From the NCBI GenBank assembly GCA_046483985.1, contig JAWOCD010000057.1, forward strand, positions 1 through 64,000: a DNA stretch of 64,000 bases. Direction: 5' to 3'. The stretch's first letter is position 1, and every line of letters starts with the position of its first letter. Positions 34,285 to 53,116 of this stretch are shown here, in pieces. Source of the DNA: Promethearchaeia archaeon. GTDB lineage: Archaea > Asgardarchaeota > Lokiarchaeia > Sigyniarchaeales > SOKP01. Both the position numbers and the translations under genes were made by a program. Under the pieces are notes generated by a model that had not been told where the DNA came from, did not search any database, and saw only the letters and a list, made by a program, of their open reading frames with translations.

Positions 34285-34374
34285 ACCACTAGATTTTTTT
34301 GAAGCGTTTACTATCTAAAGTTCACTGACATTTTTTTAATATTTCCCTAATAATTAAAAAATGAGAATAACTAT

Positions 34375-34968
34375 CTAATCCTTAGTTTCTATCTTTTTTA
34401 GGGAAATATATCCCAGTACATGGAACAATAATAAGAGAAAATAAAATACAATAAAATATACAAATGTCGGGGCCAATAGAAAAAGAGTTATGAACATAAT
34501 AACAAATGTGAGAACTTCTATTACAAGAATGAATCGATTTCTATAATATTTGAAGTCAAAGAAAGATTTATCTAGTTTGAAATCTTTCAGAATCTCCGAT
34601 AGATTATTGAGTTCTTCCTTTGAGATCAGAAATTTAGGACCGAACGGTTTTTTGTGAAATCCACAAAAGTTAGTACCCCAATCACAAGTATCTATAAGGA
34701 TGTGAATGAAATATGTTAGCCCCCCAATAAGTAAAGTAGGGGAAAAAAAGAAGAGTCCAAGTATAATTAAAATTAAGGAAGGAATAATGCTGTGAGTGAG
34801 TAACATGCGGTGATTATCATTCTGCGCATATTTGGAGAAAAATATATCAAAATCCATAATAAAGGAACAAAGTACTAGGAAAATGAATTTAATAAGAGTT
34901 AATGGACAGAAATAGTGAGTAATGGAGGCAATAATCACTCCTATAGCGAAATGTGTATTTATATGCAT
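34375..34968 (-). CDS. Membrane-bound metal-dependent hydrolase (YdjM-like)
   Basis: TH, DFD, HRMLLTHS, HILID motifs. Confidence 0.8.
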   Translation of the reverse strand: MHINTHFAIGVIIASITHYFCPLTLIKFIFLVLCSFIMDFDIFFSKYAQNDNHRMLLTHSIIPSLILIILGLFFFSPTLLIGGLTYFIHILIDTCDWGTNFCGFHKKPFGPKFLISKEELNNLSEILKDFKLDKSFFDFKYYRNRFILVIEVLTFVIMFITLFLLAPTFVYFIVFYFLLLLFHVLGYISLKKIETKD

Positions 34969-35000
34969 AGTAACCTTCAGATTTACTTTTTATATTAATA

Positions 35001-35981
35001 TTAATTTAGGAAATAATAATTTTTTCTTTTAATTCTCTTCTTTATTATTTTTTTGGGTTTAAAACCTGCCACTCCTTTTTCTTCAATTAAAAATGAAGCA
35101 GCTGAAGCGGCTAACTTTCCGATTTTCTTAATAGTGTCCCATTCTTTTGTAGATTTTAAATATTCATAGATAAAAATCGATAAATATACATCACCAGCAC
35201 CAGTTTCATCAATACTTATTTCTGGTCGATAAGCGGGAATCTCTATAATTTCATGGTCTTTTTGTGTTATGAGTGAGCCGTCTTTGCCTAACGTCATAAT
35301 AGAGATCCCCTCAAATTTTCTATAAAAATTCATAATTTCCTTCATTTCCCTCTTACCAGAGACATACTGCATCTCTTTTTTTGACCCTTTACAAATCAAG
35401 CGATCTCCCAATAATTCAATTATTTTGAGTATAATTTTTTTTTTCTCACCATTAGAGTCCAGCAAAACGTTTCCTTCCTTATCTATCGTTCGAACAAATC
35501 CTTGGAGATCGATCCCTATGCACGCATTAGGGAAAGTTTTATGTATTTTTCTAACAAATTCAAACGATATCTCATTACAAATCGGTACTAAGACAATGGC
35601 ATCTGGCTTATTTTCTAAATAGCGTTTTGGCATATCTTCGAAGTGAATATCGGGGCTCCGTGACTTTAGAGTAAGCTTCCGATAATTGTTTGAATAATCT
35701 AACACAAAATTGGTATTATCAGAATCTATTTGAATTATCCCTTCCAAGTTGATTCCAGAACTATTTAATCTTTTAAGCAAGGAAGGGGGAAAATTGTTTT
35801 TTCCTAATTTAGACAAAACTCCGATAGTTACATGAGAAGTATATGTATTCAAAGCTAAAGAGCAAAAGCAAACACTTCCGCCCAGTGTTGGGTTGAATTC
35901 AATTTTATTTTTTATCACATTATCAATAGCTATGTGACCTATAAATAAGATTGAAGTTTTTCTTTTTGGTTCCTTAGACAT
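35001..35981 (-). CDS. PfkB family carbohydrate kinase
   Basis: IGHIAID, LGGS, IDLQG, TLGKDGS, DETGAGD. Confidence 0.9.
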   Translation of the reverse strand: MSKEPKRKTSILFIGHIAIDNVIKNKIEFNPTLGGSVCFCSLALNTYTSHVTIGVLSKLGKNNFPPSLLKRLNSSGINLEGIIQIDSDNTNFVLDYSNNYRKLTLKSRSPDIHFEDMPKRYLENKPDAIVLVPICNEISFEFVRKIHKTFPNACIGIDLQGFVRTIDKEGNVLLDSNGEKKKIILKIIELLGDRLICKGSKKEMQYVSGKREMKEIMNFYRKFEGISIMTLGKDGSLITQKDHEIIEIPAYRPEISIDETGAGDVYLSIFIYEYLKSTKEWDTIKKIGKLAASAASFLIEEKGVAGFKPKKIIKKRIKRKNYYFLN

Positions 35982-36042
35982 TTAATTAAAACTCAGTAGT
36001 TTCTTTAAAATTAATATGGATAAAATAGGAAATAAGAAAAAA

Positions 36043-37167
36043 TTAATGATTTTTGTTTTTTTCCCGCTCCTTCTTTAGAGCAATCTTTAATTTATTGATT
36101 TTTGATTGTAAGCTCTCTACGAGATCAGCCATTCGACCAGACTCTCCCCCCTCAGTTGTGGGAGTTTGAAGCGATTCTATCTTCTCTTCTTTCTGTTCTA
36201 ATTCATCTTCAAGAGTTTTGATTTTTGATTTCAAATTGTCTAATTTTTCCGTATCCTCGGGGGCTTTACCCAGTTTTTCTTCCATTCCTTCTATTTTTGA
36301 TCTTAGTTTTCTATTCTCCGCTTTTAATTCCCCAACCTTACTTGATTCAGTATCAGAATCAACTTCTTCAGATTCTTTTTTTAGATTCTTGTTTTCTTTT
36401 TTTAACTTCTTTACAACCGATTTATATTTATTTACTTGTGATTGCAAATCATTACATAGGTTTCGAAGATGATCTGGTGATTCAGTTGTTACCTCTCCAG
36501 ATTCTCCCTCTTCCAAGGAAGATGCTTCTTCTTTAATATCTTTTAGCTCTTTATTCATATCTTCATTTAGAGATTCTAATTCTGAAATCTTATCGTTCTG
36601 TTCGTCAATTTGATTCTTTAGTTCTTTAATTGTTGTTTTCTTTTTAGCTAACTCAGATTTTAACTCTTGAATTAGCGTACTTGTGTCCCCCGTCTCACCT
36701 TCAGTGCTTTCTTCTGATAATTGTTCAATTTTTTGATTCATTTCCTTTATTTGAGCATTTTTTTCTTTTAACTCAGCATTTAAATCCGTTGCACCTTTTG
36801 CTCCGCTTTCCGATACTTTTAACTCTAAATCTTTCACTTGATCAGTTAATTTTGCATTTTTTTCTTTTAATTCATTAATTTCCAATTCAAGTTCCATTAT
36901 TGCTTTTTCTTTCTCTTCTTTGATTTCATCTTTTTTCTTTACTGCTTTTTCAATAGCTTCTTCAGAACGAGAGATTAAATCAATATTTTCCTCAATTTTC
37001 TCTTTTAATTCTGCATTTTCCTTCTCTAAGGTATCAATTTTCTGTTTCGCTTGCTCAAGCTCATCAATTGTATCTCCTATCACGGAAGGTTTCTTCTCTT
37101 TTTTCTTTTGTTTTTTCCAAAGAGAAACAAAGTCATCTGCATCTGCAGTTTTTTTATCTTCAGACAT
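36043..37167 (-). CDS. Long coiled-coil protein
   Basis: Heptad-rich E/K sequence interrupted by G/S/T-rich linkers. Confidence 0.75.
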   Translation of the reverse strand: MSEDKKTADADDFVSLWKKQKKKEKKPSVIGDTIDELEQAKQKIDTLEKENAELKEKIEENIDLISRSEEAIEKAVKKKDEIKEEKEKAIMELELEINELKEKNAKLTDQVKDLELKVSESGAKGATDLNAELKEKNAQIKEMNQKIEQLSEESTEGETGDTSTLIQELKSELAKKKTTIKELKNQIDEQNDKISELESLNEDMNKELKDIKEEASSLEEGESGEVTTESPDHLRNLCNDLQSQVNKYKSVVKKLKKENKNLKKESEEVDSDTESSKVGELKAENRKLRSKIEGMEEKLGKAPEDTEKLDNLKSKIKTLEDELEQKEEKIESLQTPTTEGGESGRMADLVESLQSKINKLKIALKKEREKNKNH

Positions 37168-37187
37168 TTTAATTAATCACATTTAAC

Positions 37188-38105
37188 TTAATCAGTTTTT
37201 CGCAAAATTCCTGAGAAATATCCAACAGAATATTCACAAGGGCCAGTACCACCGCCCTTTTCATAACTGGTGTAGTATTTTAATTTCTCTGCTTCATTGC
37301 AACCCAACTCTTTGCATGTTAGCATTAAAGTTGTAATGGTTTGTGGACCACAAACGGTCGTATTTCGTGCGGCTTTATATACCTTTTCGGGATCAAATTG
37401 TAAAAATGCATCAATTACGGCTTGATCTTTTTCTTTCATGTCTTTCAGATCATCTGCCGGGTCATGCATATTTGCTGGGCGTTTATGAGTCATATCCGAC
37501 GAGGCAACTATAATAATATCCTTATTTATCTCTGATATCGCTGAGGAAATAACATCCGATATTTGAACTAATGTTTCATAATCCTTAACTCCCATTTTTA
37601 TGGGGACCAACTCTAGATCTTTTTCTCCGGCACAGTGTTTAATAAACGGTAATTGGACCTCAATATTATGCTCTCGTCCATAAGGAAATCCTATGAAGGC
37701 GGATTCATCTTCTTTTATCTTTGGACTTTTTTCCAAAATTTTCTCCGCTAAATCTCTATCAATTTCTATCCCCCCCAAGGGAGTTTTCCAAATCCCTTCC
37801 TTCATAAGGCCGATATCAGAGTAGCCTTGATGGTCTGTGCCAATAATTACAACGGTATCAGGGATTTTTTCCCTAAATAAATTAAGATATGTATGTGCGG
37901 CTGCACATCCAGAGTATGTATAACCGGCGTGGGGAGACAGTCCTCCAAAAACTGTTCTCTTATCTTTATTCTGAGATTTACATTTCTCTCCTGGTCCAAA
38001 TTTACTATTTTCAAAAGACTCATTTAAAACTTTTAGTAAATCGGGTTTATATCTGGGATAAAATGAACCCGCAACAGCGGCTTTCCTTTTTGTTTTTCGA
38101 ACCAT
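37188..38105 (-). CDS. MEMO1 / AmmeMemoRadiSam protein B
   Basis: AVAGSFYP, PHAGYTYSG, WKTPLG, EHNIEVQLPF, ASSDMTH, VCG, SVGY. Confidence 0.93.
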   Translation of the reverse strand: MVRKTKRKAAVAGSFYPRYKPDLLKVLNESFENSKFGPGEKCKSQNKDKRTVFGGLSPHAGYTYSGCAAAHTYLNLFREKIPDTVVIIGTDHQGYSDIGLMKEGIWKTPLGGIEIDRDLAEKILEKSPKIKEDESAFIGFPYGREHNIEVQLPFIKHCAGEKDLELVPIKMGVKDYETLVQISDVISSAISEINKDIIIVASSDMTHKRPANMHDPADDLKDMKEKDQAVIDAFLQFDPEKVYKAARNTTVCGPQTITTLMLTCKELGCNEAEKLKYYTSYEKGGGTGPCEYSVGYFSGILRKTD

Positions 38106-38229
38106 AATTCAATACACTCATAAGAATATATTCTTTAATTTAATTTAATCCAAATAAGTATAAATAATTTGATTTTAAAATTTTTAGATTTTAATGAATT
38201 TAATAAGATTTAATAAATTCTAATACATA

Positions 38230-38832
38230 ATGAGCAAAGAAAAAGATGGGAACGTTTCGCTGGATGATCTTACCGAAGAAGATTTGCCAGAAAAGATACC
38301 CGCAAAATTTTTAAACTCTAGAGTGATTGTCTTTAATCCTTTATATGCCTCCTATTTATATGTGAAAAAAAGATTTTTCGGCGCCCCATTGGGTATTAGC
38401 AAGCCACGATTGGAATATTTCTCAAAACCTTCAGAATTATCATTAATTGAGGCTTATTATTTATTAAAGAGAGAAGAGATCACAATTTATGATGTGAATA
38501 AGGAAAAAAATTTGTCTCCAGCCGAATTTTATGAAACAGCAAAGAAAATCCACGATAAATTTGAGGAAAAATTTATCATTTATGAGGATTTACGGGAAAA
38601 AGGGTATGTACCACGTCCAGGGTTGAAATTCGGAGCGGATTTTGTCTGCTATAAAAAAGGTCCAGGATTAGAACACTCTCCATTCATTGTCCATGTTTTC
38701 CAAAGTAAAAAAAAGATTACTGCAATAGATATGGTCCGAGCTGGTCGATTAGCGACTAGTGTGAGAAAAAAGTTTGTAATCGCCAATCCACAAACTAAAA
38801 CTTACTACTTCTTTGAATGGTTCAAGCCTTAA
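38230..38832 (+). CDS. endA: tRNA-intron endonuclease, catalytic subunit
   Basis: LSLIEAYYL, YEDLREKGY, GLKFGADF..Y..GPG..HS, R.A.SVRK; Tyr-His-Lys triad present. Confidence 0.93.
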   Translation: MSKEKDGNVSLDDLTEEDLPEKIPAKFLNSRVIVFNPLYASYLYVKKRFFGAPLGISKPRLEYFSKPSELSLIEAYYLLKREEITIYDVNKEKNLSPAEFYETAKKIHDKFEEKFIIYEDLREKGYVPRPGLKFGADFVCYKKGPGLEHSPFIVHVFQSKKKITAIDMVRAGRLATSVRKKFVIANPQTKTYYFFEWFKP

Positions 38833-38846
38833 AAGAGATATTCATT

Positions 38847-41090
38847 TTAAAGAAAATTCTTCTTAATCTTATTTACTGCCTCCTCAACCATGGATTGTAA
38901 TTTCTCAGTTTCTATTTCCTTCTCAATTTCCTCAGAGATAATATCTTTTCTGGTTTCCAATTGAAAATTAATAATAGAATAATCTTGGTCAAGATGGAAT
39001 GGGAAAAATTCTGTGCCGCTTCCTTGATAAAACTTAAAGAAAAATTCGTAGAAATGGAGACGTATAGTATTCAAGAAAACTATAAGCCCTTCCAAGAGAA
39101 TAACGAGCATATTTCCGAAGATAAGACCCGTAATTATGAGAATTTGGTTTAAAAAAATCCAGACAATATGGTTTTCGGGGAAAGAAACCAGTCCAATCAT
39201 AGCCTCAACGGATAGCATTAAAGCAATATGAGTTAAGGCTAGAGCTAAAAGCCTTATATAAGAAGCAACATTGCTGATGATGGACAATAAGGTCTCAAAA
39301 GTTTCCATAGATCCTTCTGTGACGAGTTCTCCATAGGATTCTTCTTCTAAATAAGATACCCCCAATAATCTCCCAAGAGGTTTAGAAATAATTAATATCA
39401 ACCCAGGTATTACAGTGAGAAGAATTGGATATGGAAATTCAAACCAAGCCAAAATATCGAATCCCCATGTAAAGATTAAAATGGTTCCTGCCGTAAGCAA
39501 GCAGATTTTGAAAAATGACTCCGTTACGGCCAGATATTTTCTACTTTGTTTACAGTAATTAAGAAGCTGAATAGTCCATCCCAAATTAATATGAATTACT
39601 CCTATAATAACAGCGAATTTGAATAAAATCAAAATATCCTCTAAAGGATTATGAAAGATGGGATGAAGTGTTATTCCAAAAAAGTTATCCATTCCGAAAA
39701 ATGCTCCATAAAATAAACCACCAAAAATTGCTCCAAAACCACAATAAAAAATAATCCAACTAATATCATAGGTACTGCCCTTTTTTTTCCGGAATTTTAA
39801 TGCTCCCAATAAACCAGCTATGATTAAGACAAACCCATGACCGATATCACCAAACATAACGCCAAATAACAAGGGAAAACTTATAGCTAAAAATGGTGTG
39901 GGATCAATCTCGGAATAGGAGGGAGTTCCGTACATTTTTATTAATGTTTCGAAGGGTCTAATGTATGAAGGATTATCCATAATTGTGGGAGCTTCTTTTC
40001 TTAAATCCTCTTTCTTTTCTGATTCATCTTCTCCCCCCTCCTCAAATTTCTTCAACTCTCTTTCCTTTTCTCCTTTCCCAGAAGGTGCAGACTTATTGAT
40101 ATCTATACTCTCCAGCGTGATATGTTTTTTAAATCTTCTCTTTAGCTTATTGGAGATTTTCTCTTTTATAGGTGTAGGGACGAAAAAATCTAATCCTTGA
40201 AGGCTACTTGACACCTCCATAAATTGACGCTGTACCCAGTCATATTCTTCCACATTTTGAATAACTTCATCGATTGCAGCAAACTTTTTTAAATCTTCTT
40301 TTCTCAAACGAACTATTTCCTTATGATACTTATCCAACCGATTTTCAATCAATTCAATTTCTTTATCGATTCTCTCAAAATTTATTCCCCCCTCTTTGAT
40401 ATATTTTTTCAAAATTTGAATTTCTTCAGCATGAATGATATTTATCTTCTCTTTTAATTCATCTTCTTTATTAGCAATATAAACAATATAAAAAACAATA
40501 CGATCTTCAGAAATATGCTCTATCTCGTGTACATTAGGAAATTTCGAGAATTCAAATAGATTTTTCAACGTACTTAGATTTTTTGAATATGTAGTATATA
40601 CCTTAAAGCCCAAACGGTTGAGTTTTGATAAACTTCCTTTTTGCAGATCATACTGATCTAAAAATTGATAGGCTTTTCTAATTTGTATTATATCTTCAAG
40701 AGTAATTGTTGCCTTTGAGATATAACTTTTTAATTCATTAATTCTATTGATGTAAAAATTAAGCTCTTCCGAAATGTTATCCATGAGCTCACTCAGACTC
40801 CGCGTTTTAAAGGTAATCTTCTCTTCTTTATCTAATTCTAACGTATCAAAATCACTTCGATTAATATTGAGATTTTTAAACAAAGTCTTAAGATCCTTTC
40901 TTAATTGTTTAATTTTCTTGTAATTCTCGTCTTTTTTTCTTTCCTCAACAGGATATGATTTTCCTGACTTGGTCTTAATGTGAACATTATGGATATCTGA
41001 AAGATGGTTTATCAAGGAATCTTTATACTCTTTTTCAATTAAGGTCCTAATAAGAGTCATTTTACTTTGTCCTTTCATTTTATCCTTCAC
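38847..41090 (-). CDS. atpI: A/V-type ATPase subunit I (a)
   Basis: YGTPSYSEIDPT, MFGDIGHG, SYIRL (essential Arg), RLHFYEFF.KFY. Confidence 0.93.
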   Translation of the reverse strand: MKDKMKGQSKMTLIRTLIEKEYKDSLINHLSDIHNVHIKTKSGKSYPVEERKKDENYKKIKQLRKDLKTLFKNLNINRSDFDTLELDKEEKITFKTRSLSELMDNISEELNFYINRINELKSYISKATITLEDIIQIRKAYQFLDQYDLQKGSLSKLNRLGFKVYTTYSKNLSTLKNLFEFSKFPNVHEIEHISEDRIVFYIVYIANKEDELKEKINIIHAEEIQILKKYIKEGGINFERIDKEIELIENRLDKYHKEIVRLRKEDLKKFAAIDEVIQNVEEYDWVQRQFMEVSSSLQGLDFFVPTPIKEKISNKLKRRFKKHITLESIDINKSAPSGKGEKERELKKFEEGGEDESEKKEDLRKEAPTIMDNPSYIRPFETLIKMYGTPSYSEIDPTPFLAISFPLLFGVMFGDIGHGFVLIIAGLLGALKFRKKKGSTYDISWIIFYCGFGAIFGGLFYGAFFGMDNFFGITLHPIFHNPLEDILILFKFAVIIGVIHINLGWTIQLLNYCKQSRKYLAVTESFFKICLLTAGTILIFTWGFDILAWFEFPYPILLTVIPGLILIISKPLGRLLGVSYLEEESYGELVTEGSMETFETLLSIISNVASYIRLLALALTHIALMLSVEAMIGLVSFPENHIVWIFLNQILIITGLIFGNMLVILLEGLIVFLNTIRLHFYEFFFKFYQGSGTEFFPFHLDQDYSIINFQLETRKDIISEEIEKEIETEKLQSMVEEAVNKIKKNFL

Positions 41091-41094
41091 TCTA

Positions 41095-41733
41095 TTATCG
41101 TTCTTTTTTTTTTAGTAAATCCTTGGTTTTTTTAAATCTCACAAAATTTTCTCTTTGCTCTTCTTCTAAAATATCTTTAATTTTTTCGATATTTAACTCA
41201 AGGTCGGGAATTAGTACGTTCTTGAGACCATTGATACGGCGATTTACTTTTTCATAATCAAATCCTGCCTTATACATGATATTTTCACTCTCGGCAAAGG
41301 AAATTATCTTAAGCATGAATTGTTTTAACATCTCTATTAAATCGTCTAAATGAGAGGTTGTAGAATCAAAGGAATAGGGAGGTAAATTCTTTTTCTTCCA
41401 TTTAAAATTTATTTTTGGAATGATGATCTCTTTTTCTTTTGAATAATTGACCTCTACTTTCGGACTATAATGGATAGAACTAAATTTGCTAATGAGATTC
41501 AAGGCTCGTTTGCCCATTTTTTCGTAGATTACGTTTAATTTGAGAATTATTTTCCTATAATAATTTAAAAAGTCTTCTCTTCGAGAGTTATATTCTGGCC
41601 ACGTATCTTTAATAAGATTCATAAGAAATTGACGCTTAAATTTTAAAAATTTTTCACCTCTCTGTATAAAATCCAATTTCTTTTTTAATTCAATTAAATT
41701 AGTTTTGGTCGGCTTTACATCTCGAAAACTCAT
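41095..41733 (-). CDS. atpD: A/V-type ATPase subunit D
   Basis: PTKTNL..LK, RRINGL...LIP, LEEEQRENFVR.K. Confidence 0.9.
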   Translation of the reverse strand: MSFRDVKPTKTNLIELKKKLDFIQRGEKFLKFKRQFLMNLIKDTWPEYNSRREDFLNYYRKIILKLNVIYEKMGKRALNLISKFSSIHYSPKVEVNYSKEKEIIIPKINFKWKKKNLPPYSFDSTTSHLDDLIEMLKQFMLKIISFAESENIMYKAGFDYEKVNRRINGLKNVLIPDLELNIEKIKDILEEEQRENFVRFKKTKDLLKKKER

Positions 41734-41734
41734 C

Positions 41735-43123
41735 TTACAACCTCTTTGTATAATACTTTCTAATAAAGTCTTGATGGATCCGATTTAGATGTTCCTTTGG
41801 AACTACAGAAAGAACATTCCATGCAAGATCAAAGGTCTCCGTGAAACTCCTATCCTCATCTTGATCTTGATCCAGAAACTCATTTTCAAAAGCATCGGCA
41901 AAATCCAATAGAAATTTTTGTTCTCTATTCAAGCCTTCTTCTCCGACAATGGAAATTAAATCCCGAACTTCAAGAGCATCGGAGTAGGAAGCTAATATCT
42001 GGGAAGCTATATCGGAATGATCTTCACGGGTCTTTTTTTCTCCTATGGCGTCCTTCATCAACCTTGAAATTGAAGAGATTACCTCAAATGGGGGATAAAT
42101 TCCTTTTTTATCCAAATCTCTATCAAAAACCAGTTGTCCTTCTGTAATATATCTGGTTGTATCTGGAACGGGATGTGAGATATCATCATTCGGCATAGTA
42201 AGTATCGGAATTTGTGTTATTGAGCCTTTTTTATTTTTTATTTTCCCCGTTCTTTCATAAAGGGATGCCAAATCAGAATAGAGATAACCGGGATATCCCT
42301 TTTTACTAGGAATTTCTTCTTTCGCCGCACTTAATTCTCTTAAGGCCTCAGCATAATTTGTGATATCCACTAAAACTACCAGCACATGCATATCTTTTTC
42401 AAAAGCAAAATATTCCGCAGTAGTTAAAGCCACACGTGGTATAATTAATCGTTCCATGATAGGATCATCTGCAAAATTAATAAACGAAATGATATTTTTG
42501 ATGTTTCCGCCTTCTTTAAATTTTTCAGCAAAATATCTTGCTTCATCTTGTATGATCCCAATCCCACAGAAAATAATTAAGAATGGCTCTCCACTTAATA
42601 CTTTTGCTTGAGTCACAATTTGTGCGGCTAATTTATTATGAGGGAGCCCTTGTCCGCTAAAAATGGGAAGATTCTGACCTCTGATGAGCGTAAATAGCCC
42701 GTCGATCACAGATACACCAGTCTGGATAACTACTGACGGATACTCACGACCAAATGGATTTATCGGAGAACTATTAATATCTAATTTATCACCTGTTAAA
42801 ATAGAAGAATCCAACGGTCTTTTTGTTGATATATCAATTGGTTGGCCTAAAGAATTAAAAGTATGTCCCAACATATCTTCAGAAACAGATAGTTTAAAAC
42901 TTTCATTAGTAAAGATAACTTCTGAGTTTTCGGAAGATAGACCGGTGGTATCTTCAAAAACTTCAAGCACAATAATATCCTCATCCATCCTTACCACTTC
43001 TCCGGTTCTAATTTTATCATTCGTTTTTATTTTCACGATTTCTCCATACTTTGGACGATGTTTATTTTTCAAAAACACTAAGGGGCCCACTATTTCTCGA
43101 ATCCTCTTATAGATAACGCTCAT
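41735..43123 (-). CDS. atpB: A/V-type ATPase subunit B
   Basis: LPIFSGQGLPHN, PRVALTTAEY, GYPGYLYSDL, MPNDDISHPVPD, SRLM. Confidence 0.95.
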   Translation of the reverse strand: MSVIYKRIREIVGPLVFLKNKHRPKYGEIVKIKTNDKIRTGEVVRMDEDIIVLEVFEDTTGLSSENSEVIFTNESFKLSVSEDMLGHTFNSLGQPIDISTKRPLDSSILTGDKLDINSSPINPFGREYPSVVIQTGVSVIDGLFTLIRGQNLPIFSGQGLPHNKLAAQIVTQAKVLSGEPFLIIFCGIGIIQDEARYFAEKFKEGGNIKNIISFINFADDPIMERLIIPRVALTTAEYFAFEKDMHVLVVLVDITNYAEALRELSAAKEEIPSKKGYPGYLYSDLASLYERTGKIKNKKGSITQIPILTMPNDDISHPVPDTTRYITEGQLVFDRDLDKKGIYPPFEVISSISRLMKDAIGEKKTREDHSDIASQILASYSDALEVRDLISIVGEEGLNREQKFLLDFADAFENEFLDQDQDEDRSFTETFDLAWNVLSVVPKEHLNRIHQDFIRKYYTKRL

Positions 43124-44976
43124 GACTGTTCACCCCCGTAAATTAATCTTAAATGTTCAAAGCTGCTCAGCATTTCTTTTTTAAGTTCTATCATACGTTC
43201 AAAATCATCATTAGGTATTTCGGATTTCATCCGTAAAAATTTATCTACAATATCCATATTTTTAATATCTTCAATAAGGACCCCCCTATTTAGGATTTCT
43301 TTTGCTCGATTGTAAAATAATAGAATTAATTTAGCCATTGCCATTAATTTTTCAGTAGAAGTAAAATTATCAATATCATCGAAAGCATTTTGGATTAAAA
43401 ATCCCTCTTGAATAATTCTTGCTACAAATAGGGTAAGTTGTTGGTCTTGCGACAAGCTTTGCTCTCCGACTAATTGTGCTACATTTTTTAACTCATCTTC
43501 CTTGGAAAGCAGATCGTTTATCTGAATACGACATTCATACCAATCAAGATCAATTTCTGACCAATCGATATCTTGTTCAAAGTACCAATCAGCAATATTA
43601 TCGGGATAATTCGAATAGGATTTCAGCCAGTTAATTGCCGGATAATGCTTATTATAGGCAAGATTCGCATCCAGAGGCCAAAAGGCTCGTACAAATCTTT
43701 TTGTATTGGCTGTAACGGGTTCACTAAAATCACCCGAAGGAGGAGATATCGAGCCAATAATAGAAAGGGATCCTGTACGTCTTTTATTAGTGACGGTATT
43801 ACCAATGGACATTATAACACCTGCTCTTTCGTAAAATGCCGAAAGTCTCGAAGGAAGATATGCAGGGTAACCTTCTTCGGCAGGCATCTCTTCTAGAAGG
43901 GCAGAAAGTTCACGTAATGCTTCAGCCCATCGAGAGGTACTGTCGGCTAATAAGGTAACATTATAGCCCATGTCACGATAATACTCTGCGATTGTAATAC
44001 CAGAAAATATGCTTGATTCTCTTGCCGAAACGGGCATATTAGGGGTATTGGCAATTAAAACAGTACGTTCCATTAAGGGTCGACCGCCCCAAGGATCAGT
44101 TAGCTTACTGAATTCTTCTAAGATATTAGCCATTTCGTTGCCACGTATTCCACAGCCCACAAAAATAATGATATCAGCATCACTAAATTTGGCAATGGAC
44201 TGCTGAATCACAGTTTTGCCCGTTCCGACCGCTCCAGGGATCGCAACACAACCTCCCTTCGCAACAGGAAATAATAAGTCAATTACACGTATTCCTGTTT
44301 GCAGAGGTACATCTGGATTTAATTTTTTATAAAAGGGTCTGTTTTCCATAATTGGCCATTTTTGGACCATATTATACGATTTTTCGGTGCCCTTTGTTTT
44401 TAAACAATAAATCTCCTCGTCAATGGTGTATTCTCCTTCCTCAGCTATCATGGTTATTTGACCCCCCTCTCCAAAAGGAACCATTATTTTGTGGGAAATT
44501 GACTCGGTCTCCTGAACAACTCCAATTATGTCTCCTTCTGAAATATGATCATTTTCTGATTTTGACGGTGTGAAGTGCCATTTTTTGGTTCGGGAGAGGG
44601 CTGGAACATCTAACCCTCGCTCTAAAAAGCCTACACGTTCGGACCTTTTATATAGATCCTCTAAAGGGCGTTGAATGCCGTCAAATACATTCGATAATAA
44701 GCCTGGAGCTAATTCCATTGATAGTGGTTCATGTAAATTTTTAACTTTCTCCTTTAATTGAAGTTCATTAGTATCTTGAAAACATCGTACTACAACCCGA
44801 TCTTTTAAGATCTGAAGTACTTCACCAATAATATTCTGCTCTTCGATTTTTATAAGATCGTGAAGTCGAATGTCGGTTTCTAAACCTTTTACTTCAATCA
44901 CAGAGCCTTTGACCGCTGAAATATAACCGAAGTTATTTTCTTCTTCTAGTTCACTCGATTTTTCAGATTCGCTCAT
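43120..44976 (-). CDS. atpA: A/V-type ATPase subunit A (catalytic Glu position is Ile)
   Basis: DGIQRPL, GAVGTGKT, GCGIRGNEM, ADSTSRWAEALRE, EEGYPAYL, GDFSEPVT. Confidence 0.95.
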   Translation of the reverse strand: MSESEKSSELEEENNFGYISAVKGSVIEVKGLETDIRLHDLIKIEEQNIIGEVLQILKDRVVVRCFQDTNELQLKEKVKNLHEPLSMELAPGLLSNVFDGIQRPLEDLYKRSERVGFLERGLDVPALSRTKKWHFTPSKSENDHISEGDIIGVVQETESISHKIMVPFGEGGQITMIAEEGEYTIDEEIYCLKTKGTEKSYNMVQKWPIMENRPFYKKLNPDVPLQTGIRVIDLLFPVAKGGCVAIPGAVGTGKTVIQQSIAKFSDADIIIFVGCGIRGNEMANILEEFSKLTDPWGGRPLMERTVLIANTPNMPVSARESSIFSGITIAEYYRDMGYNVTLLADSTSRWAEALRELSALLEEMPAEEGYPAYLPSRLSAFYERAGVIMSIGNTVTNKRRTGSLSIIGSISPPSGDFSEPVTANTKRFVRAFWPLDANLAYNKHYPAINWLKSYSNYPDNIADWYFEQDIDWSEIDLDWYECRIQINDLLSKEDELKNVAQLVGEQSLSQDQQLTLFVARIIQEGFLIQNAFDDIDNFTSTEKLMAMAKLILLFYNRAKEILNRGVLIEDIKNMDIVDKFLRMKSEIPNDDFERMIELKKEMLSSFEHLRLIYGGEQS

Positions 44977-45688
44977 ATTCTTTCAAATATTCTTTCATTT
45001 CTGATTTTTTTTTCTCAGTAAATTGTTCAAATTCTTGTAGAATTTTATCTATTCCCTCATCCGAGACAATTTTAGAAAATTCTCGTTCAATATAATCTGA
45101 ATACTGCTCAAACAAATTATCTATTGTAGAATCATAAGAAATCTGTTCTTCTTCTATATATATCTTAAATCCCCCGGTGAATGCTTTAGATCCTTTCTCA
45201 AGTTGGAAACTATTTTGGATATTTTCTTTCAAAACGTTGATCTTATCCTTAAAATAATCATAATCACGAGCATTTAAAATTAATACAAATTCTTGGGAAG
45301 ATTCAATATTTTCCTCACAAATTGACTGTAAATTTTTTTTGATAAACTCTTGATAACTTTTATAATTACCTTTTATCTTATCTCCGATAAAATCGTGAAT
45401 CCCCCGTTTTAAATCATTTAGAAGAAAGCTTTTCAAATTTAAAAACCCTTCTTTGAATCTTAAACTGACGGAAGAGAATTTCTGGTTGATCGTTGATCGA
45501 TATGTCTCCTTGAAAGATTTTTTTACTTTCTTAGACTCTTGCTCTGCTTTTTCCATATATTTCTTTTTAATTTCTGCTTTTTGAAACAATGTATCTTGTC
45601 TTAATTCTTTAATTTCGTTTTGAACGTCATTTACAAGAGTAAGTCCTAATTTTCCAAATCTTTCTTTTAAATCTTTTTTCTCAGCCAT
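44963..45688 (-). CDS. atpE: A/V-type ATPase subunit E
   Basis: N-terminal coiled coil, LNARD, GGF, YDSTID; operon position. Confidence 0.8.
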   Translation of the reverse strand: MAEKKDLKERFGKLGLTLVNDVQNEIKELRQDTLFQKAEIKKKYMEKAEQESKKVKKSFKETYRSTINQKFSSVSLRFKEGFLNLKSFLLNDLKRGIHDFIGDKIKGNYKSYQEFIKKNLQSICEENIESSQEFVLILNARDYDYFKDKINVLKENIQNSFQLEKGSKAFTGGFKIYIEEEQISYDSTIDNLFEQYSDYIEREFSKIVSDEGIDKILQEFEQFTEKKKSEMKEYLKEYERI

Positions 45689-45699: not shown

Positions 45700-46023
45700 T
45701 TACTTATTTACTATTTCTCCAACTGATTTTATAATTTTTCTGTGGAATAAGTCATTTTCCTCAACATTTGGTTGTAATAAATTAGGAAGATAAAAAATGA
45801 CTGGTCTTCTGTGGGTAAGTTTATAATTAATCACGGTATCCATAATATCCGAAGGCAAATTAATGGCAATAATAATTAACCCCACCTTAGGATCTTGAGT
45901 TAATTCATTAAATTTCTCTAAGAAGTTTTCAGCTTTTTCTACGATTGACCCTCTTATCCCGATGATTCCCAATAATAATACTATATCATCGTGTCCAATA
46001 ACATGAATATCTAATTCCGTCAT
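45700..46023 (-). CDS. atpF: A/V-type ATPase subunit F
   Basis: IHVIG.DD.V..LG..GI, VGLIII, IIKSVG. Confidence 0.85.
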   Translation of the reverse strand: MTELDIHVIGHDDIVLLLGIIGIRGSIVEKAENFLEKFNELTQDPKVGLIIIAINLPSDIMDTVINYKLTHRRPVIFYLPNLLQPNVEENDLFHRKIIKSVGEIVNK

Positions 46024-46027: not shown

Positions 46028-46360
46028 TTAAAAACCTAATCCTATTTTTTCTAAAACTTTATTTTGTAATTTTCCTTTCTGATTATTGTATTCCTCTCGT
46101 ATATTATCCAATTCTTCTTGAAATTCTTCCTCAACTTCATCAATTTTAGTATTCAAGTCATTGGTTAATCTCCCTAAAGCACGATTCACGATTTCATTCT
46201 TTTCTTTTGCCAGACTTTCATTTCTTTTTTCTTGATCCCTTCTAAGGGCTTGAATTTCAGATAAAATTTCACTTTTAGTATTTTCCATCAAGTCATTACA
46301 TAAATCTTCTATATAAGTAATCCATTTGAAAATATTCATTATTTTCTCCTCATCTCTCAT
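46028..46360 (-). CDS. Probable peripheral-stalk subunit H/G
   Basis: 110-aa coiled coil inside the ATPase operon. Confidence 0.65.
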   Translation of the reverse strand: MRDEEKIMNIFKWITYIEDLCNDLMENTKSEILSEIQALRRDQEKRNESLAKEKNEIVNRALGRLTNDLNTKIDEVEEEFQEELDNIREEYNNQKGKLQNKVLEKIGLGF

Positions 46361-46364: not shown

Positions 46365-47450
46365 TTATTCAAAATCCTCATTACTAATTTGATCTTTTAG
46401 AGAATAATATTTGTGGTGAAGAATCTTTACAACCTTAGGCAAGATATAACTCTCTATCTCTCTTTTCTTTTTAAGGATAACTTCTATAATACGCAATATT
46501 GTCAATAGATCTATATCATCAATTTGCACTTGTTTAAACTTATTAAAGTAATAAGAATAATATAATCTTTTAACATAATCTTCAAAATTTTTCTCTTCCA
46601 GTTTTCGCTCGTCGAATAATCCCTTTAATTCTTCTGCTTCTGTATTAAAGAAATTTTTTAACTCTGCGAAAAACGCACTTTGGGAATTTTTATATAGGAG
46701 AGTTTGAATCATATCATTCTCCAAAAATAAATGATGATCCACAATAAATTGTTTTAACAATTCCTTTTCAATTTCGTTTATGATCCCCCTATATATCGTG
46801 TTTAAATTATATATTTCCACAACTAAACTAAGATACGGCTTAATAAGCTTTTTTTCTTTTCTATTTAAATCAACATTAAGATTTGCCATACGATCATAAT
46901 AAATTTTATCCAAAAAAGCCTCCAATACGAATATCTCGTTATTTTTTCTAAAATATAAGATTCCTTCCCTTATCGCTTTTTCATATTGAGTATCTCTCAT
47001 AAATAGCTGGATTTCATCTAATGAGTGTATTTCTACTAACTCATTCATAAACTCTTCTTTATCGAGCAATTCCTCTACATTAATGTTAATATTCTTCCGT
47101 TTCTGTTTTAAAGGTGTGCCTAAGATCGTATCAATGACTGCCTGTTTTATATTTCTGATTTCAAATTTAAGGAGATATCTTTTGAGTAATGATCTCATTG
47201 TATCGGGAGAATAAACTATGATTTGCCCTACAACATTTATATAACTGTTATATAATTCTCCTTCAATTTGTTCGATTGTATATTCATCAATGGAGAAATC
47301 AGGATAAAAAGGGGTAACAAACTCAACAAATTTTTCAATCTCATCTAATTCTTCTAAGCGGTTAAGCGAATCTTGATCCATTATTAATTTCTTTAAAAAC
47401 CCAATCTTAATATACGTATAAGCATAGGATGGTATAATCGCGCTCGTTAA
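46365..47450 (-). CDS. atpC: A/V-type ATPase subunit C (d); frame open upstream of the first ATG (47381)
   Basis: FEIRNIK, LEAFLDKIYY, EIYNL..IYRG; upstream in-frame SYAYTYIKIG matches the subunit C N-terminal motif. Confidence 0.8.
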   Translation of the reverse strand, partial: LTSAIIPSYAYTYIKIGFLKKLIMDQDSLNRLEELDEIEKFVEFVTPFYPDFSIDEYTIEQIEGELYNSYINVVGQIIVYSPDTMRSLLKRYLLKFEIRNIKQAVIDTILGTPLKQKRKNININVEELLDKEEFMNELVEIHSLDEIQLFMRDTQYEKAIREGILYFRKNNEIFVLEAFLDKIYYDRMANLNVDLNRKEKKLIKPYLSLVVEIYNLNTIYRGIINEIEKELLKQFIVDHHLFLENDMIQTLLYKNSQSAFFAELKNFFNTEAEELKGLFDERKLEEKNFEDYVKRLYYSYYFNKFKQVQIDDIDLLTILRIIEVILKKKREIESYILPKVVKILHHKYYSLKDQISNEDFE

Positions 47451-47521: not shown

Positions 47522-47917
47522 TTAAGCCGGAGGTTGTGGAATTTTTGTCCATAATAATATTGCTACAATTAACCCATAAACTGCCAATGCTTCACACAAG
47601 GCAACGATTAAAAAGGCCTTGAAAAAAGACTCTTCTCTCTCTGCCAATGAGGAAATTGCCGCTGTTCCAACAGTTTTCATCGCCCATGCACTTCCCAAAA
47701 CCGCTGCACTCACCGAAATTGCTGCGGAGATGGCTAAGTATGTTGAAGTTGGAGTGTTGTAATAATCAAAAGATCCTTTTTCAGTTTGAGCTGCAACAAA
47801 TGTGGTAATTCCGTTAATGCTGAAAAATACAACGAAGATTAACACGAGTTGAAATCCAGCTAATAAAAAATAAAATTTTCGCTTCTCGTTCATTTCAATT
47901 TCATCAAAAGTTGTCAA
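47522..47917 (-). CDS. atpK: A/V-type ATPase proteolipid subunit K (c) with an extra N-terminal hydrophobic helix
   Basis: One hairpin with ALCEALAVYGL (ion-binding Glu), preceded by a third hydrophobic segment. Confidence 0.9.
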   Translation of the reverse strand: MTTFDEIEMNEKRKFYFLLAGFQLVLIFVVFFSINGITTFVAAQTEKGSFDYYNTPTSTYLAISAAISVSAAVLGSAWAMKTVGTAAISSLAEREESFFKAFLIVALCEALAVYGLIVAILLWTKIPQPPA

Positions 47918-48052: not shown

Positions 48053-48697
48053 TTACTTATGAATTATAACACGTATTAGGTCTGCAATATCGTGTATTCG
48101 ATCTGCCATTTCCTCAAGGATTGTTATACTGTCTCGAATTTTAAGCATGGGTCTAACACCGAGGCTTTTATTATCATAGATATAATTGAGAAAATCTCGA
48201 AAAATAGTATCAATTCGATTTTCAATTTCATGGATCATTGTGGTGTTCTCAAATACTTTATCCGGATTGGTCTGAAGATTTTTAATCGTGAGTTTGAATG
48301 TGTCAGCCATCTCAATTAATTTATTGATTAATTTATGGAAACGTTTCTGCATTTGTTCGTTTAATTCCATGTCAATAAAGGCCAAAAGATCTACGAATTC
48401 TAAGGCACAATTAATTACATTATCCATTCTTAATGCCAAAGTCATATAATCTCCCAAATCACGGGCTAAATCCGCTTGTGAATAATCTTGAATTAACCTG
48501 ATTTTAATGTCATCAGCATCTTCCTCAGATAATTGCATTTTATGTCTCTTTTTCTTTAAACTCTCTTTATTCCCTTCACGGTCTTCAATCCAACTCGAAT
48601 AGTATACTGCCATATCGCTAATTACAGAATAGATTAATCTGGAATGCTCTATTAATTGAGCAATGATTTCTTGCTTTACTTTGTTATTCATTGACAT
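48053..48697 (-). CDS. DUF47 / PhoU-like phosphate transport regulator
   Basis: SEEDADDIK, IENRID, LEEMADRIHDIAD. Confidence 0.85.
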   Translation of the reverse strand: MSMNNKVKQEIIAQLIEHSRLIYSVISDMAVYYSSWIEDREGNKESLKKKRHKMQLSEEDADDIKIRLIQDYSQADLARDLGDYMTLALRMDNVINCALEFVDLLAFIDMELNEQMQKRFHKLINKLIEMADTFKLTIKNLQTNPDKVFENTTMIHEIENRIDTIFRDFLNYIYDNKSLGVRPMLKIRDSITILEEMADRIHDIADLIRVIIHK

Positions 48698-48914
48698 TTC
48701 TTGTCAGCCTTATTTGATCTTATTTATATTTTTTATTTTTCTTATTAATTATTGTTATTAACATGAATATAATAAAATTATACATTAAAAATGCTTTGTG
48801 TAGGTTAAGAGATCTTTTTCAATTTTAAACGTTTAAGAAAACTAGCTAAATTTTATCTAATGAAGATCAACAGAAAATAAATGTTAAAAATATTTTTTAA
48901 TTTTAGAAAGTAAG

Positions 48915-49672
48915 ATGGAAAAATTAAAGCAATATAATAAGATTACTGGTTTTAGTAGTATTGCTCGAAGATATTTTGTTAATAATTTTTATGATGGAAA
49001 TAAATGAGGATCTCCCTCATAACCAGAATGTTGACAAGTTTGGGCATACTATTAGGGTTCTTTGTTGTAATCTTAAAAAACCCTGAGGTGGATACCGTTG
49101 AAAGTATTTATGTTATATTCACGGGCTTTGGGACGGCCATTTCTATGTTGATTTCTGGATTGTCTGGATCTTACTTATCCGAGCGGGCGGAAATGCGTAA
49201 GGAGCAAATTGAATTGGAAAAAGCTATGGCATTATATGGTAACATAAAGATGGATGAAAGATCCAATAGAGAGGAAATCAAAAAAGCCATGCTTTTATCA
49301 GAAGAAAAAGAAGATCAAATTAAGAAATGGAGTGAAAAGCTTAAACAGTGGCGAAAGGAAGAAATATCGGAAAAAAAGGAGCAAGAAACTCTCCATGAAA
49401 AAGCAGAAAAATTTACCAGTATAATCGTATCTTCAGTTAACGGATTAAGTCCCTTCTTGGGGGGAATCATTCCCATTATCCCTTTTTTCATCAAACCTTT
49501 CGCTGGTTTTCCGGTATTTATTGGAGCATTCACCATAATCCTGGCTTTTATTGTTTTATTAGGTGTATTTCTCGGAAAAGTTTCTAAAGAATCAATCATC
49601 AAAAATATCTTCCAAATGATGGGTTTTTTCTTCTTGACGGTTCTTCTCACTGTCTTATTCTTAGGAATGTAG
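48915..49672 (+). pseudogene. VIT1/CCC1-family transporter gene interrupted by a 29-nt insertion (48999-49027)
   Basis: ATG 48915 gives MEKLKQYNKITGFSSIARRYFVNNFYDG-NK-stop. A different frame continues MLTSLGILLG...SGLSGSYLSERAE...GGIIPIIPF. Removing 29 nt joins ...NNFYDG-MLT... in frame. Confidence 0.8.
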
Positions 49673-49770
49673 AAAAAGGTAACAATTCTCTTTTTCAACA
49701 TTTAGAGGGTTATACTAAAAGGAAAATAAATATCAAATTTTAATTTCTTTCCTTCATTTTATAAAAAAAG

Positions 49771-50556
49771 ATGAGTAATTTGAATTTTCATTGCGGTATT
49801 GATATAGGTAGCCTAGCCACAAAGATCGTTCTTATTAATGAAAATAATGAATTATTGGACTGGAGTATAGAGCGTTCTACATATGATTTTAAGCATATTG
49901 GACATAAATTATTCGAAGATCTAATGGAAAAACATGATCTGAAACGAAAAAATATCTTTATCATGAGCACTGGATACGGAAGGAATACCATCGATATCGC
50001 AGATGATCGAATTACCGAAATCACTGCACATGCTCGAGGAGTGCAGTATTTTTATCCCGATGTATATTCAGTTATTGATATTGGAGGTCAAGATTCAAAA
50101 GCCATTGTTATTTCCCCAAAAACAGGGTCCGTAATCGATTTCGTTATGAATGATAAATGTGCGGCGGGCACAGGTAGATTCTTGGAAGTGATGGCTAACG
50201 CACTGGAGGTCCCATTAAGCGAGTTCGGGGATCTTGCATTGAAATCCAATAAGGCGTCATCAATAAGTTCAACATGTACCGTGTTTGCAGAGAGTGAAGT
50301 AATCTCCTTATTTGCAAAGGGGACTCCGAAGGAGGATATTGCAAGTGGAATTCATAAATCAATTGCCCGGCGAGTTGCGGGAATGGCAAAACGGATCGGT
50401 GTGGATAAGCCCTTAGTGTTCACGGGAGGGGTTGCAAAAGATATTGCAGTCAAAAGATTCTTGGAAAAGGAATTTGGGTTTAAAATACAAGTACCAAAAT
50501 ATCCTCAGCTAACCGGAGCAATCGGTGCGGCCCTGTTAGGATCTGAAAAAGATTAA
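49771..50556 (+). CDS. 2-hydroxyacyl-CoA dehydratase activator (HgdC/BadF-like ASKHA ATPase)
   Basis: GIDIGS, TGYGR, EITAHARG, IDIGGQDSK, MNDKCAAGTG, CTVFAESE. Confidence 0.95.
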   Translation: MSNLNFHCGIDIGSLATKIVLINENNELLDWSIERSTYDFKHIGHKLFEDLMEKHDLKRKNIFIMSTGYGRNTIDIADDRITEITAHARGVQYFYPDVYSVIDIGGQDSKAIVISPKTGSVIDFVMNDKCAAGTGRFLEVMANALEVPLSEFGDLALKSNKASSISSTCTVFAESEVISLFAKGTPKEDIASGIHKSIARRVAGMAKRIGVDKPLVFTGGVAKDIAVKRFLEKEFGFKIQVPKYPQLTGAIGAALLGSEKD

Positions 50557-50636
50557 ATTTCATATGTTAAAAAACACCAAATTGGATTAAAGAAATTCAA
50601 AATATTTAAAAAAAATGGTTCTGGGTTATAATAAAG

Positions 50637-51776
50637 ATGCAACAAAAAGAGCTGATTTCTGAATACGGGGAATATCTAGAACTGCAAAAACAAGAAGGAA
50701 AAACCATAATTGCCTTTTTGGCGCATGATAATATTCCTGAAGAATTGATTCATGCAGCTGGATTTATTCCTTTACGTATGATATTCGCCGGAAATGAGAG
50801 ATTTATGAATGTGAGTCATAATTATTTGCCGCCGTCTACATGTTGTTTCGCACAAACATGCATTGGATTATTCTCCCTAAAAGAGAGCCCATATAATTTT
50901 TTGGAATTAGTAGATTATATTGTTGTGTCTAATCACTGTATTAGCGATATGTGCGCTTCAGAAATCATTTCAAAGTATTCATTTATTCCACGGATTAACT
51001 TTTATGTATCCTATACTCAAAATGAGAACGGATTAAAATACTATAAGTTAGAATTAGAAGAGTTCCGAAAGCAGTTAGAGGAGATCAAAGGGTCCCCTAT
51101 TCCTGATAAGAAGATTATTGAAAGCGTAAAAAAGTACAATAGTTTAAAGAAACAGCTTACACGGATTAGCCAGCTAAATATTCAAGGATCTTTAAAGATA
51201 AAAATGTACCAAAAAGCACTTTTATACGGACCTACCATTAATCCCGAGTTGGAGCGTTTTATAAGGGAACAAAAACAAAAAGAATATGACCTAAAGAATC
51301 ATACTAAAGATATCATTCTTACCGGATGTTCTGTGTTTATAGGAGATGACATTTTAGAAATAATAGAAGGAAATGGTGGAAATATAATATTGTTTGACAG
51401 TTGGATTGGAACCAAATATTTCAAGCAAATACTAAGCCAAGAAAAAATTCAATCCATAGAAGATCCATTAGATTTGTTTGTAGAAAGATATAAAAAAAAT
51501 ACCTCATCGGATCATGCTGTCCCGGATTTTCATGAAGAATACCTTGAAGATCTAAAAGAAAAGATAAGAACACAGAGTAAAAAGCGCGAGAAGGATATTG
51601 GCGTTATTAATCATATCATGAAGTTTTGTGATCATATTTCTTTATTTCAAGCATTTACAAAAGATGAGTTAAAAAACGAGAATATACCTATACTAAATCT
51701 GGAAAGGGATTATTCAAGAGCCAATCGAGGTCAATTAAAAACTCGTATTGAAGCTTTTTTGGAGATGATGGAATGA
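50637..51776 (+). CDS. 2-hydroxyacyl-CoA dehydratase subunit (HgdA/B family)
   Basis: PEELIHAAG, three Cys sites, KFCD, GQLKTRIEAFLEM. Confidence 0.88.
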   Translation: MQQKELISEYGEYLELQKQEGKTIIAFLAHDNIPEELIHAAGFIPLRMIFAGNERFMNVSHNYLPPSTCCFAQTCIGLFSLKESPYNFLELVDYIVVSNHCISDMCASEIISKYSFIPRINFYVSYTQNENGLKYYKLELEEFRKQLEEIKGSPIPDKKIIESVKKYNSLKKQLTRISQLNIQGSLKIKMYQKALLYGPTINPELERFIREQKQKEYDLKNHTKDIILTGCSVFIGDDILEIIEGNGGNIILFDSWIGTKYFKQILSQEKIQSIEDPLDLFVERYKKNTSSDHAVPDFHEEYLEDLKEKIRTQSKKREKDIGVINHIMKFCDHISLFQAFTKDELKNENIPILNLERDYSRANRGQLKTRIEAFLEMME

Positions 51777-53116
51777 TGAGTGTATTTGCAGATGATATCA
51801 TCAATTTTGAGTCCATGCTTAAGCTCTCTTATAACTTCTTAGCAGGAAGAGACTATTTAAAAAAGAAAAAGTTCCAAGAAAAAAAGAAGTTAGTTTCCGT
51901 GGCATTACCGTATTCCGACTTAGCTTTTGCTGCGGGAGCTGTTCCTACGTTTCCTATCAGAATGGAGAAATTTAAAATCGATAATTATCTAAAACAATTT
52001 AACACGGCGACTAACATTTTCGGATGGAAAAACGTGACCAATTTTTTGGGATTTATTAAGCAATTCGACAGCCTGAACATTGTAGACAGTGTGTTAGATA
52101 ATGTTATTAATTCAATCAATGAAAAATATAATGAATTATACGATTTAGGAATGGAGAAAGGACTCCCAAACGATTTTTGCTACGGAATTAAAGCGTTATG
52201 GGGCATGCACATCTCTAAGGGGAAAAACGTGGATGGGATACTCAATTTTACGATCCGTTGTTCCGCATACAATAAATATATGGAGTCTCTCAAAAATTTA
52301 GTACCGGAAGCTAAACAAATCTGGATTGATATCCCCCCTAGAGATATTGGAAATACTTTAGAAATTGCTAAAGAAAATATCAACAAGGGAATACAACAAT
52401 TGGAAGAATTGACCGGAAATAACGTAACTGATAATAGTCTCAAAAAGCAATTTCGGATCGGAAATCAGATCAAACGATATTATAAAACCATTCTATTCGA
52501 CATTAGCAAATCTGACTTCTATCCTTGCAACGCCGCTTCATTTGCCGAGATTCTTTCCTTGCTTAGTATCAGCTTTCAAGATTTAAATTCAAATGCACAG
52601 CGGTATCTTAATAATATAGCAGATATGGCTAGGGAAATGCGAGAACGAATCAATAATCGGGTGGGGGAGGATCTCTCAGACAGCCCCAGAATCTTGCTTA
52701 CTCCGATGTTCGGAGGATGGGAACCAAAGTCACATGAGTTTATTCATAAGGTTGGGGGAAGAGTCTTATATGGGGATTGGGAGATTTTCGGTTATCTGGA
52801 AGAGATTGATACATCCGGCGATCCAGTTGAAGCATATGCAAAATATCTATTAGATTGCTCAACCAAAGGAATCGGTTGCGATAACTCGAAAACCACAGAT
52901 TCATATCTCCGCACGGCAAAGAAGTTAGATGTGGATGGAGTCATATATAACCAAGTATTTGGATGTCACTCCATTTCCAATAATTATTATATGCTTCGGG
53001 AAAAATTACGAAGAGAGGGAATTCCCTCCACTGTCATTAACTTCAATAAGATAGGAGAGAATGTGGAACAGGTGAAAACTCGCCTCCAAGCGTTTTATGA
53101 AATTCTTCAGAATTAG
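51773..53116 (+). CDS. 2-hydroxyacyl-CoA dehydratase subunit (HgdA/B family)
   Basis: DFCYG, IRCS, VDGVI..Q.FGCH, EQVKTRLQAF.E. Confidence 0.85.
   Translation: MMSVFADDIINFESMLKLSYNFLAGRDYLKKKKFQEKKKLVSVALPYSDLAFAAGAVPTFPIRMEKFKIDNYLKQFNTATNIFGWKNVTNFLGFIKQFDSLNIVDSVLDNVINSINEKYNELYDLGMEKGLPNDFCYGIKALWGMHISKGKNVDGILNFTIRCSAYNKYMESLKNLVPEAKQIWIDIPPRDIGNTLEIAKENINKGIQQLEELTGNNVTDNSLKKQFRIGNQIKRYYKTILFDISKSDFYPCNAASFAEILSLLSISFQDLNSNAQRYLNNIADMAREMRERINNRVGEDLSDSPRILLTPMFGGWEPKSHEFIHKVGGRVLYGDWEIFGYLEEIDTSGDPVEAYAKYLLDCSTKGIGCDNSKTTDSYLRTAKKLDVDGVIYNQVFGCHSISNNYYMLREKLRREGIPSTVINFNKIGENVEQVKTRLQAFYEILQN

Follow-up and report, generated by a model that had tools for sequence, protein, structure and literature searches.

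The window analysed here, a stretch of 64,000 nucleotides, carries a complete nine-gene operon for a rotary A/V-type ATPase in which codon 277 of subunit A reads ATA (Ile; 44146..44148, minus strand), where the catalytic glutamate is expected. We explain this locus, with middling confidence, as a single vertically inherited H+-type A/V-ATPase that lost catalysis on its terminal branch and whose stalled complex has been retained, as a long-lived intermediate towards operon loss. The host cell probably manages without functional rotary catalysis of ATP. Speaking against our explanation, the change is found in one species, no clade keeps it, and the lineage drifts generally.

The operon and codon 277

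The genes are arranged in the order K-C-H-F-E-A-B-D-I on the minus strand, and every ORF is open and of normal length:

47522..47917, minus strand: subunit K/c; Glu109 at 47591-47593 kept, no Na+ motif (H+ type)
46365..47381, minus strand: subunit C
46028..46360, minus strand: H/G-like stator gene; no family hit, identified from its position and from the orthologues of relatives
45700..46023, minus strand: subunit F
44963..45688, minus strand: subunit E
43120..44976, minus strand: subunit A, 618 aa, intact ORF, sole copy in the assembly
41735..43123, minus strand: subunit B, 462 aa; arginine finger Arg354 at 42062-42064 kept
41095..41733, minus strand: subunit D (rotor shaft)
38847..41090, minus strand: subunit I/a; essential Arg613 at 39252-39254 kept

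The operon thus provides the full A/V-type set of subunits A, B, C, D, E, F, H/G, I and K, with H assigned by synteny only. None of the nine ORFs shows the stops, frameshifts or truncation typical of a pseudogene, in line with the first-pass annotation, which had noted that no subunit gene is frameshifted. The PF16886 match in subunit A corresponds to the non-homologous region of the A-type fold, and the predicted model of A adopts the A-subunit fold (pLDDT 86.7, pTM 0.89) with a TM of ~0.9 to E. hirae A (Foldseek). In subunit c the Glu is followed by Ala-Leu, and the marks of a Na+-translocating enzyme (Glu/Gln in helix 1 and Ser/Thr/Gln after the Glu) were not found, so that we assign the complex to the H+ type.

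Homologues of the window genes are annotated as Promethearchaeia/Lokiarchaeota. DUF47 and tRNA-splicing endonuclease genes flank the operon, as they do in several related genera, and its gene order is that of Glu-bearing relatives, including two syntenic sisters at 82% and 79% identity. Judging from this shared ancestral locus and gene order, the operon is the inherited enzyme and not a transferred spare. A genome-wide search of the host Lokiarchaeia/Promethearchaeia MAG (4.06 Mb, 128 contigs, 97% complete) returned one A, one B and a single copy of each other subunit; a second rotary ATPase was therefore rejected, with none of the nine subunits duplicated in the assembly. There is a slim chance at best that a working enzyme is missing from this assembly and that the window operon is a spare. 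Several related MAGs do lack the region through assembly gaps, and the host MAG is itself fragmented and short of complete; however, such a spare would have to occupy the ancestral locus, no subunit has a second copy, and each of the 20 relatives' loci that were read holds one full operon.

Two minor observations concern the surroundings of the operon. Upstream of it (48053-53116) lie DUF47, VIT1-family and BcrAD/BadFG activator genes and two HGD-D dehydratase-like genes, in an order identical to that of sister L031. In several relatives (e.g. L034:6598-7254), atpD has no ATG, GTG or TTG near its conserved N-terminus, which results in short ORF calls; D of the window begins with ATG.

The codons GGC TGT GGA ATA CGT GGC AAC GAA ATG are present on the minus strand (44157-44131) as originally quoted. 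In alignments, residue 277 falls on Glu263 of P. horikoshii A and on beta-Glu181 of E. coli (E188 in the bovine and E190 in the PS3 enzyme), which bears out the initial observation that GCGERGNEM has become GCGIRGNEM and that subunit A of the window lacks the catalytic glutamate of A/V-type ATPases. Verification of the codon in reads gave the same answer: Logan contigs of X1, a public freshwater-sediment run that is perhaps related to the source sample, match the window with 0 differences, ATA included, at a depth of ~4 and with the codon 21 nt from a contig end. These contigs cover 44125-44301, 43756-44108 and 42043-42242, so that E277I, the P-loop changes, S312P and B G324R (described below) are all seen in reads. 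Given the 0 differences, an assembly error at codon 277 is unlikely. The sisters use GAG (L034) and GAA (L031) at this residue, and reaching ATA from either takes two to three base changes, consistent with the earlier argument that more than one substitution separates it from a Glu codon. Recoding of ATA was rejected, as 38 of the 44 operon ATA codons align with Ile and only the one at residue 277 aligns with Glu. Gene conversion from subunit B, which has Ile at the same column, was rejected as well, because the two genes use different codons there and the flanking sequence resembles A.

Tabulating residue 277 across orthologues, we found Glu in 148/148 and then in 200/200 nearest homologues, the two sisters included. 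Glu is likewise present in 138 of 143 scorable representatives of a 50%-identity set, which agrees with its description as essentially invariant, and 86 of the order's 93 other genomes carry GERGNE, the remaining 7 being without a full-length main A gene in their assemblies. In the gene tree, A of the window is nested among its Glu-bearing sisters (support 100/95 and 100/100). The change thus arose on its own branch and, as judged from this placement, Ile277 is a derived state confined to one terminal branch. Neither a region-focused protein search nor two DNA pattern scans found a second ATPase with a GIRGNE-type motif. A clade sharing the motif was rejected, since the 163 DNA pattern matches in metagenomes and genomes encode no ATPase; nor does A of the window belong to a conserved pseudoenzyme family, in which the catalytic loss is common to a clade, as no second sequence was found in these searches. 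In the literature searched, we also found no paper on such a natural rotary ATPase variant, nor on beta-M209I.

Three Glu-less representatives (P0283, P0335 and P0341) seem to be real degenerate proteins. As V-type A subunits that lost the same Glu on single branches they resemble A of the window; unlike it, they are more decayed, and they are bacterial where the context is known (L232). In P0283 (L232:8001-9842), a Treponema-like V-ATPase A, the catalytic Glu is replaced by Ala and the EEMP loop is shortened by a small deletion. As a conserved Glu-less family it was rejected, being a singleton whose nearest relatives carry Glu in 119/119 cases. Treponemes often carry a second operon.

The active site and its expected catalysis

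Around the catalytic site, the window shows the following changed and retained positions in A, and changed positions in B:

44227..44232, minus strand: P-loop G249A and F250V; Ala is also seen in other family members, and 200/200 near homologues have Phe
44212..44217, minus strand: Walker A Lys254-Thr255, retained
44041..44043, minus strand: S312P, aligned with beta-Met209; 200/200 near homologues and 149/150 representatives have Ser; covered by X1
43930..43944, minus strand: Walker B Asp345 and Arg349 (beta-Asp242, beta-Arg246), retained
42671..42673, minus strand: B K151N; column invariant in 20 relatives
42152..42154, minus strand: B G324R, aligned with alpha-Ile346 (VISIT-DG) and lying on the face lent by B to the catalytic site; covered by X1

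The changes E277I, S312P, F250V and G249A in A and K151N and R274K in B are found only in the window. B also gains two arginines, G324R and I196R; residue 324 is Arg in the window vs Gly in nearly all relatives, and the VISIT-DG motif adjoins the phosphate site (PMC3268026). Among the core positions that are invariant family-wide (n=46), the window alters exactly E277 and S312, whereas the sisters alter none. As general background to these positions, beta-Met209 is functionally important and the A and B subunits bind each other. K254, T255, R278, E281, D345, R349, Y445 and F532 of A are kept, as are B-R354 (= alpha-Arg376) and, along the ion path, I-Arg613 and K-Glu109. The first-pass annotation had listed the P-loop Lys-Thr, the Walker B region, the arginine finger and the ion-binding residues as retained. 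This holds for Lys254-Thr255, Walker B, B-Arg354, I-Arg613 and K-Glu109; the P-loop as a whole is not fully conserved, GGF having become GAV. In its nine subunits, A fold, Walker A/B, arginine finger, I Arg and c-ring Glu, the complex is built like the prokaryotic A/V-ATPases (P. horikoshii A 1VDZ/3M4Y; E. hirae V1 3VR4/3VR6; T. thermophilus V/A), and it differs from them by Ile for the catalytic Glu, S312P, F250V and B G324R/K151N in what is the sole genome copy.

An alignment-based search of the nucleotide-site motifs of A and B found no window-specific gain of Asp or Glu, and the relocated base that had been suggested is thus not supported. We give hardly any credence to normal activity through such a base, or to a sequencing or decoding artefact behind the Ile. 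The two arginines gained by B do point to a remodelled site, but the site motifs gain no Asp or Glu, the X1 contig agrees with the assembly, and the operon's other ATA codons fit Ile.

The catalytic carboxylate is required in both directions, i.e. for ATP hydrolysis and for ATP synthesis. In saturation mutagenesis of beta-E190 of TF1 (PS3 F1), only Asp rotates at a detection limit of ~1 rps (PMC13351929), and F1 Ala mutants of catalytic residues are 10^3-10^4 slower (PMC5380711). Since only Asp works at this F1 position, catalysis in the window enzyme is probably at least 1000-fold down, and its ATP-coupled ion movement is predicted to be near zero, F1 data being applied here to an A-type enzyme. 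The idea of a maintained complex that binds nucleotide and hydrolyses it poorly is thereby supported as likely, together with the open ORFs, a branch omega of 0.035 (see below) and the kept Lys/Thr/Asp/Arg ligands and adenine pocket; its extensions to a gate, a sensor or a relocated base are not.

The laboratory F1 mutants beta-E190Q/A (PS3) and beta-E181 (E. coli) are changed at the same position and would have the same expected outcome, assembly with near-inactivity. Unlike theirs, the change in the window is natural and chromosomal, and no wild-type copy was found. The non-catalytic alpha and B subunits of rotary ATPases also resemble A of the window at this column: in alpha, a Glu>Gln change abolished catalysis (bioRxiv 2026.10.01.756066), and B of this operon likewise has Ile there. 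Those subunits alternate with an active one, whereas the ring of the window would have six non-catalytic sites.

Residual turnover offers another view of the same residues. The complex might run as a throttled motor, ~10^3-10^4 slower and still proton-coupled, a rate that would suffice for a sediment cell of very slow growth and would limit futile ATP burn; we find this distinctly unlikely. One-way rotation persists in F1 Ala mutants at this Glu (PMC5380711), no other charged catalytic residue and neither ion-path residue is lost, and many relatives hold an A paralogue with an Arg>Pro change that perhaps also damps the head. However, the damage at S312, F250 and B-G324 should cut activity further, the conserved sites of head and shaft drift, and with 4/34 site codons hit, survival of the other essential residues is what chance would give.

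Selection, possible decay and an operon deletion in a relative

The branch dN/dS of A is 0.035 vs 0.030 in the sisters (p=0.59) and that of B 0.080 vs 0.019 (p=0.0007), each value being an average over a long branch in which a recent relaxation would be diluted. Orthologues that all carry Glu together with relaxed selection in the window had been named as the outcome that would speak against a maintained enzyme. The first half of it is what we found.

At conserved sites, head and shaft have 31/595 changes in the window vs 17/1190 in the sisters, membrane part and stalk 5/305 vs 10/610. The two parts differ within the window (p=0.011), whereas their rates are equal in the sisters. Subunit D has 4 of 42 conserved sites altered vs 0 and 0 in two sisters, subunit K has 0 of 40, and there is no excess in K, C, E, H or I. 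Six flanking control genes have 17/479 changes in the window vs 9/958 in the sisters. As these genes share the excess of the head, the lineage appears to drift generally, and relaxation specific to the head, considered as a strong claim, was weakened by this comparison (17/479 vs 31/595, p=0.23). What is distinctive in the window is the combination of radical active-site changes and an untouched membrane part, not overall drift. Within A, enrichment of changes at the site is modest (4/34 vs 12/243), with the site set drawn after seeing the data. The flanking genes at 33826-38832 have ~3-4x the conserved-site changes of the sisters (few outgroups), which suggests weaker purifying selection across the lineage.

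Plain early pseudogenisation would account for much of this: the whole operon would recently have become neutral and been caught before its first stop or deletion. The window is a singleton, as are the sporadic Glu-less A subunits elsewhere, the excess of conserved-site changes is lineage-wide, and a relative has lost its operon by deletion (see below). We regard this as unlikely, though far from negligible. Were the whole operon neutral, 8.8 kb free of stops that also carry hits in the 35 site codons would be improbable, at most 0.009 for 2 hits, 0.001 for 3 and 0.0002 for 4, as calculated analytically with an assumed mutation model and a post hoc site set and with indels ignored. Even the count of two hits thus argues against neutrality, E>I requires two non-synonymous changes in one codon, and K, C, E, H and I are without excess. 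Because of this low joint probability, the data favour a release of catalysis with ongoing selection for intact subunits.

Such selection could in principle serve a new function, and a nucleotide-gated ion conduit or sensor had been put forward. We consider a proton conduit of this kind, or an ATP/ADP sensor, very unlikely. The membrane sector is best conserved while head and shaft contacts drift, and the nucleotide ligands are kept; against this, we found no clade conserving the Ile, the change sitting on one terminal branch, nor a partner gene or a motif gain; Glu-bearing relatives share the operon's gene order and neighbours, and an open proton path would be costly.

Deletion of the operon is seen in a relative, G018, which has 93-96% DNA identity to G007 at this locus. 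An assembled contig of G018 joins G007 positions 2331 and 13327, with ~11 kb removed and 9-12 nt of microhomology at the junction (L247, G018:C227, near 11160-11173). The deletion takes the whole ATPase operon, a zinc-ribbon ORF and half of an A paralogue, and subunit I was not found elsewhere in the G018 genome. This contig-level loss of the whole operon supports the dispensability of the rotary ATPase. MAGs without the ATPase also include G024, G067, G110 and G036, of which G024, G067 and G110 were rejected as true losses; their flanking genes are absent too, probably through assembly gaps.

Several relatives hold an orphan second A with Arg>Pro after a kept Glu (L042:12324-14117; also L040, L041, L044, L047, L049 and L025). 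It sits after a membrane/zinc-ribbon ORF of 140-150 aa and is absent at the locus of the window clade. This Lokiarchaeia paralogue resembles A of the window in being a crippled A in the same organism family and operon context, yet it retains its Glu and is conserved as an additional copy alongside an active A. A of the window was rejected as such a paralogue, since its Glu is absent and the tree places it as the main A orthologue. A homologue of the zinc-ribbon membrane ORF, which follows subunit I in relatives, lies away from the operon and beside an EF2-like gene (G000:C59:33620-34072).

Energy metabolism of the host and the retained complex

The host genome has ten ADP-forming acyl-CoA synthetase-like matches, all under the curated cut-off, and two membrane pyrophosphatases (L235 and L236; G000:C85:51312-53363 and C95:52910-55009), both with the Lys of the K+-independent type. 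K+-independent membrane pyrophosphatases with this Lys are known only among H+ pumps (PMC10897367). A complete redox ion pump was not found in the genome, which yielded no Mrp/Nuo antiporter-like subunit and no RnfA/E; we infer from this that the ATPase would normally serve as an ATP-spending pump, a job that the pyrophosphatases can do. The second pyrophosphatase as the cause of the Glu loss was rejected, as it is common in Glu-bearing relatives and those with two pyrophosphatases retain Glu. The energy equipment is thus permissive, not causal, for the loss. The genome also contains an RnfD-like and RnfC gene pair (L240:3859-6224), possibly a minimal Rnf-derived module given that RnfA/E was not found, and a lone NuoD-like gene of 517 aa (L241:6364-7914) without an antiporter-like subunit in the genome.

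In our favoured explanation, a long-lived intermediate after loss of catalysis, the cell would make its ATP by substrate-level phosphorylation and obtain its proton gradient from PPi-driven pumps, which would render ATP-driven pumping dispensable in this fermenter. The head would still fold and bind Mg-nucleotide via Lys254/Thr255/Arg278/Asp345/B-Arg354, and, stalled, would cap an intact proton rotor. A point loss of catalysis would then be free or ATP-saving, while breakage of a single subunit would be selected against, perhaps because half-complexes leak, and the present state would most likely be a lasting stage on the path to operon loss. Two points run counter to the cap role: yeast Vo is autoinhibited when free (PMC7541076), and G018 suggests that clean deletion can occur. 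In a stronger version, the sole rotary complex would be kept under selection for a non-catalytic job, as a nucleotide-locked plug, gate or sensor on the proton rotor, with the membrane run on pyrophosphate and no chemiosmotic ATP turnover; this, too, we hold to be unlikely if by no means fanciful.

Rotary ATPases are treated as nearly indispensable, and annotation by gene presence would score this genome as ATP-synthase-positive. A natural sole copy that is intact but catalytically dead, and the removal of the full operon in a relative, suggest that life on substrate-level ATP and PPi-driven proton pumping is possible for some Lokiarchaeia, which bears on energy models of an archaeal lineage close to eukaryotes. 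Although its reach is limited to one uncultured species, the locus provides a natural test of a rotary complex without catalysis, with a Glu-bearing sister of 82% identity (L034) as control. As a last observation on the pumps themselves, the pyrophosphatase on C95 belongs to a divergent, lower-scoring class that is present in ~ten relatives.
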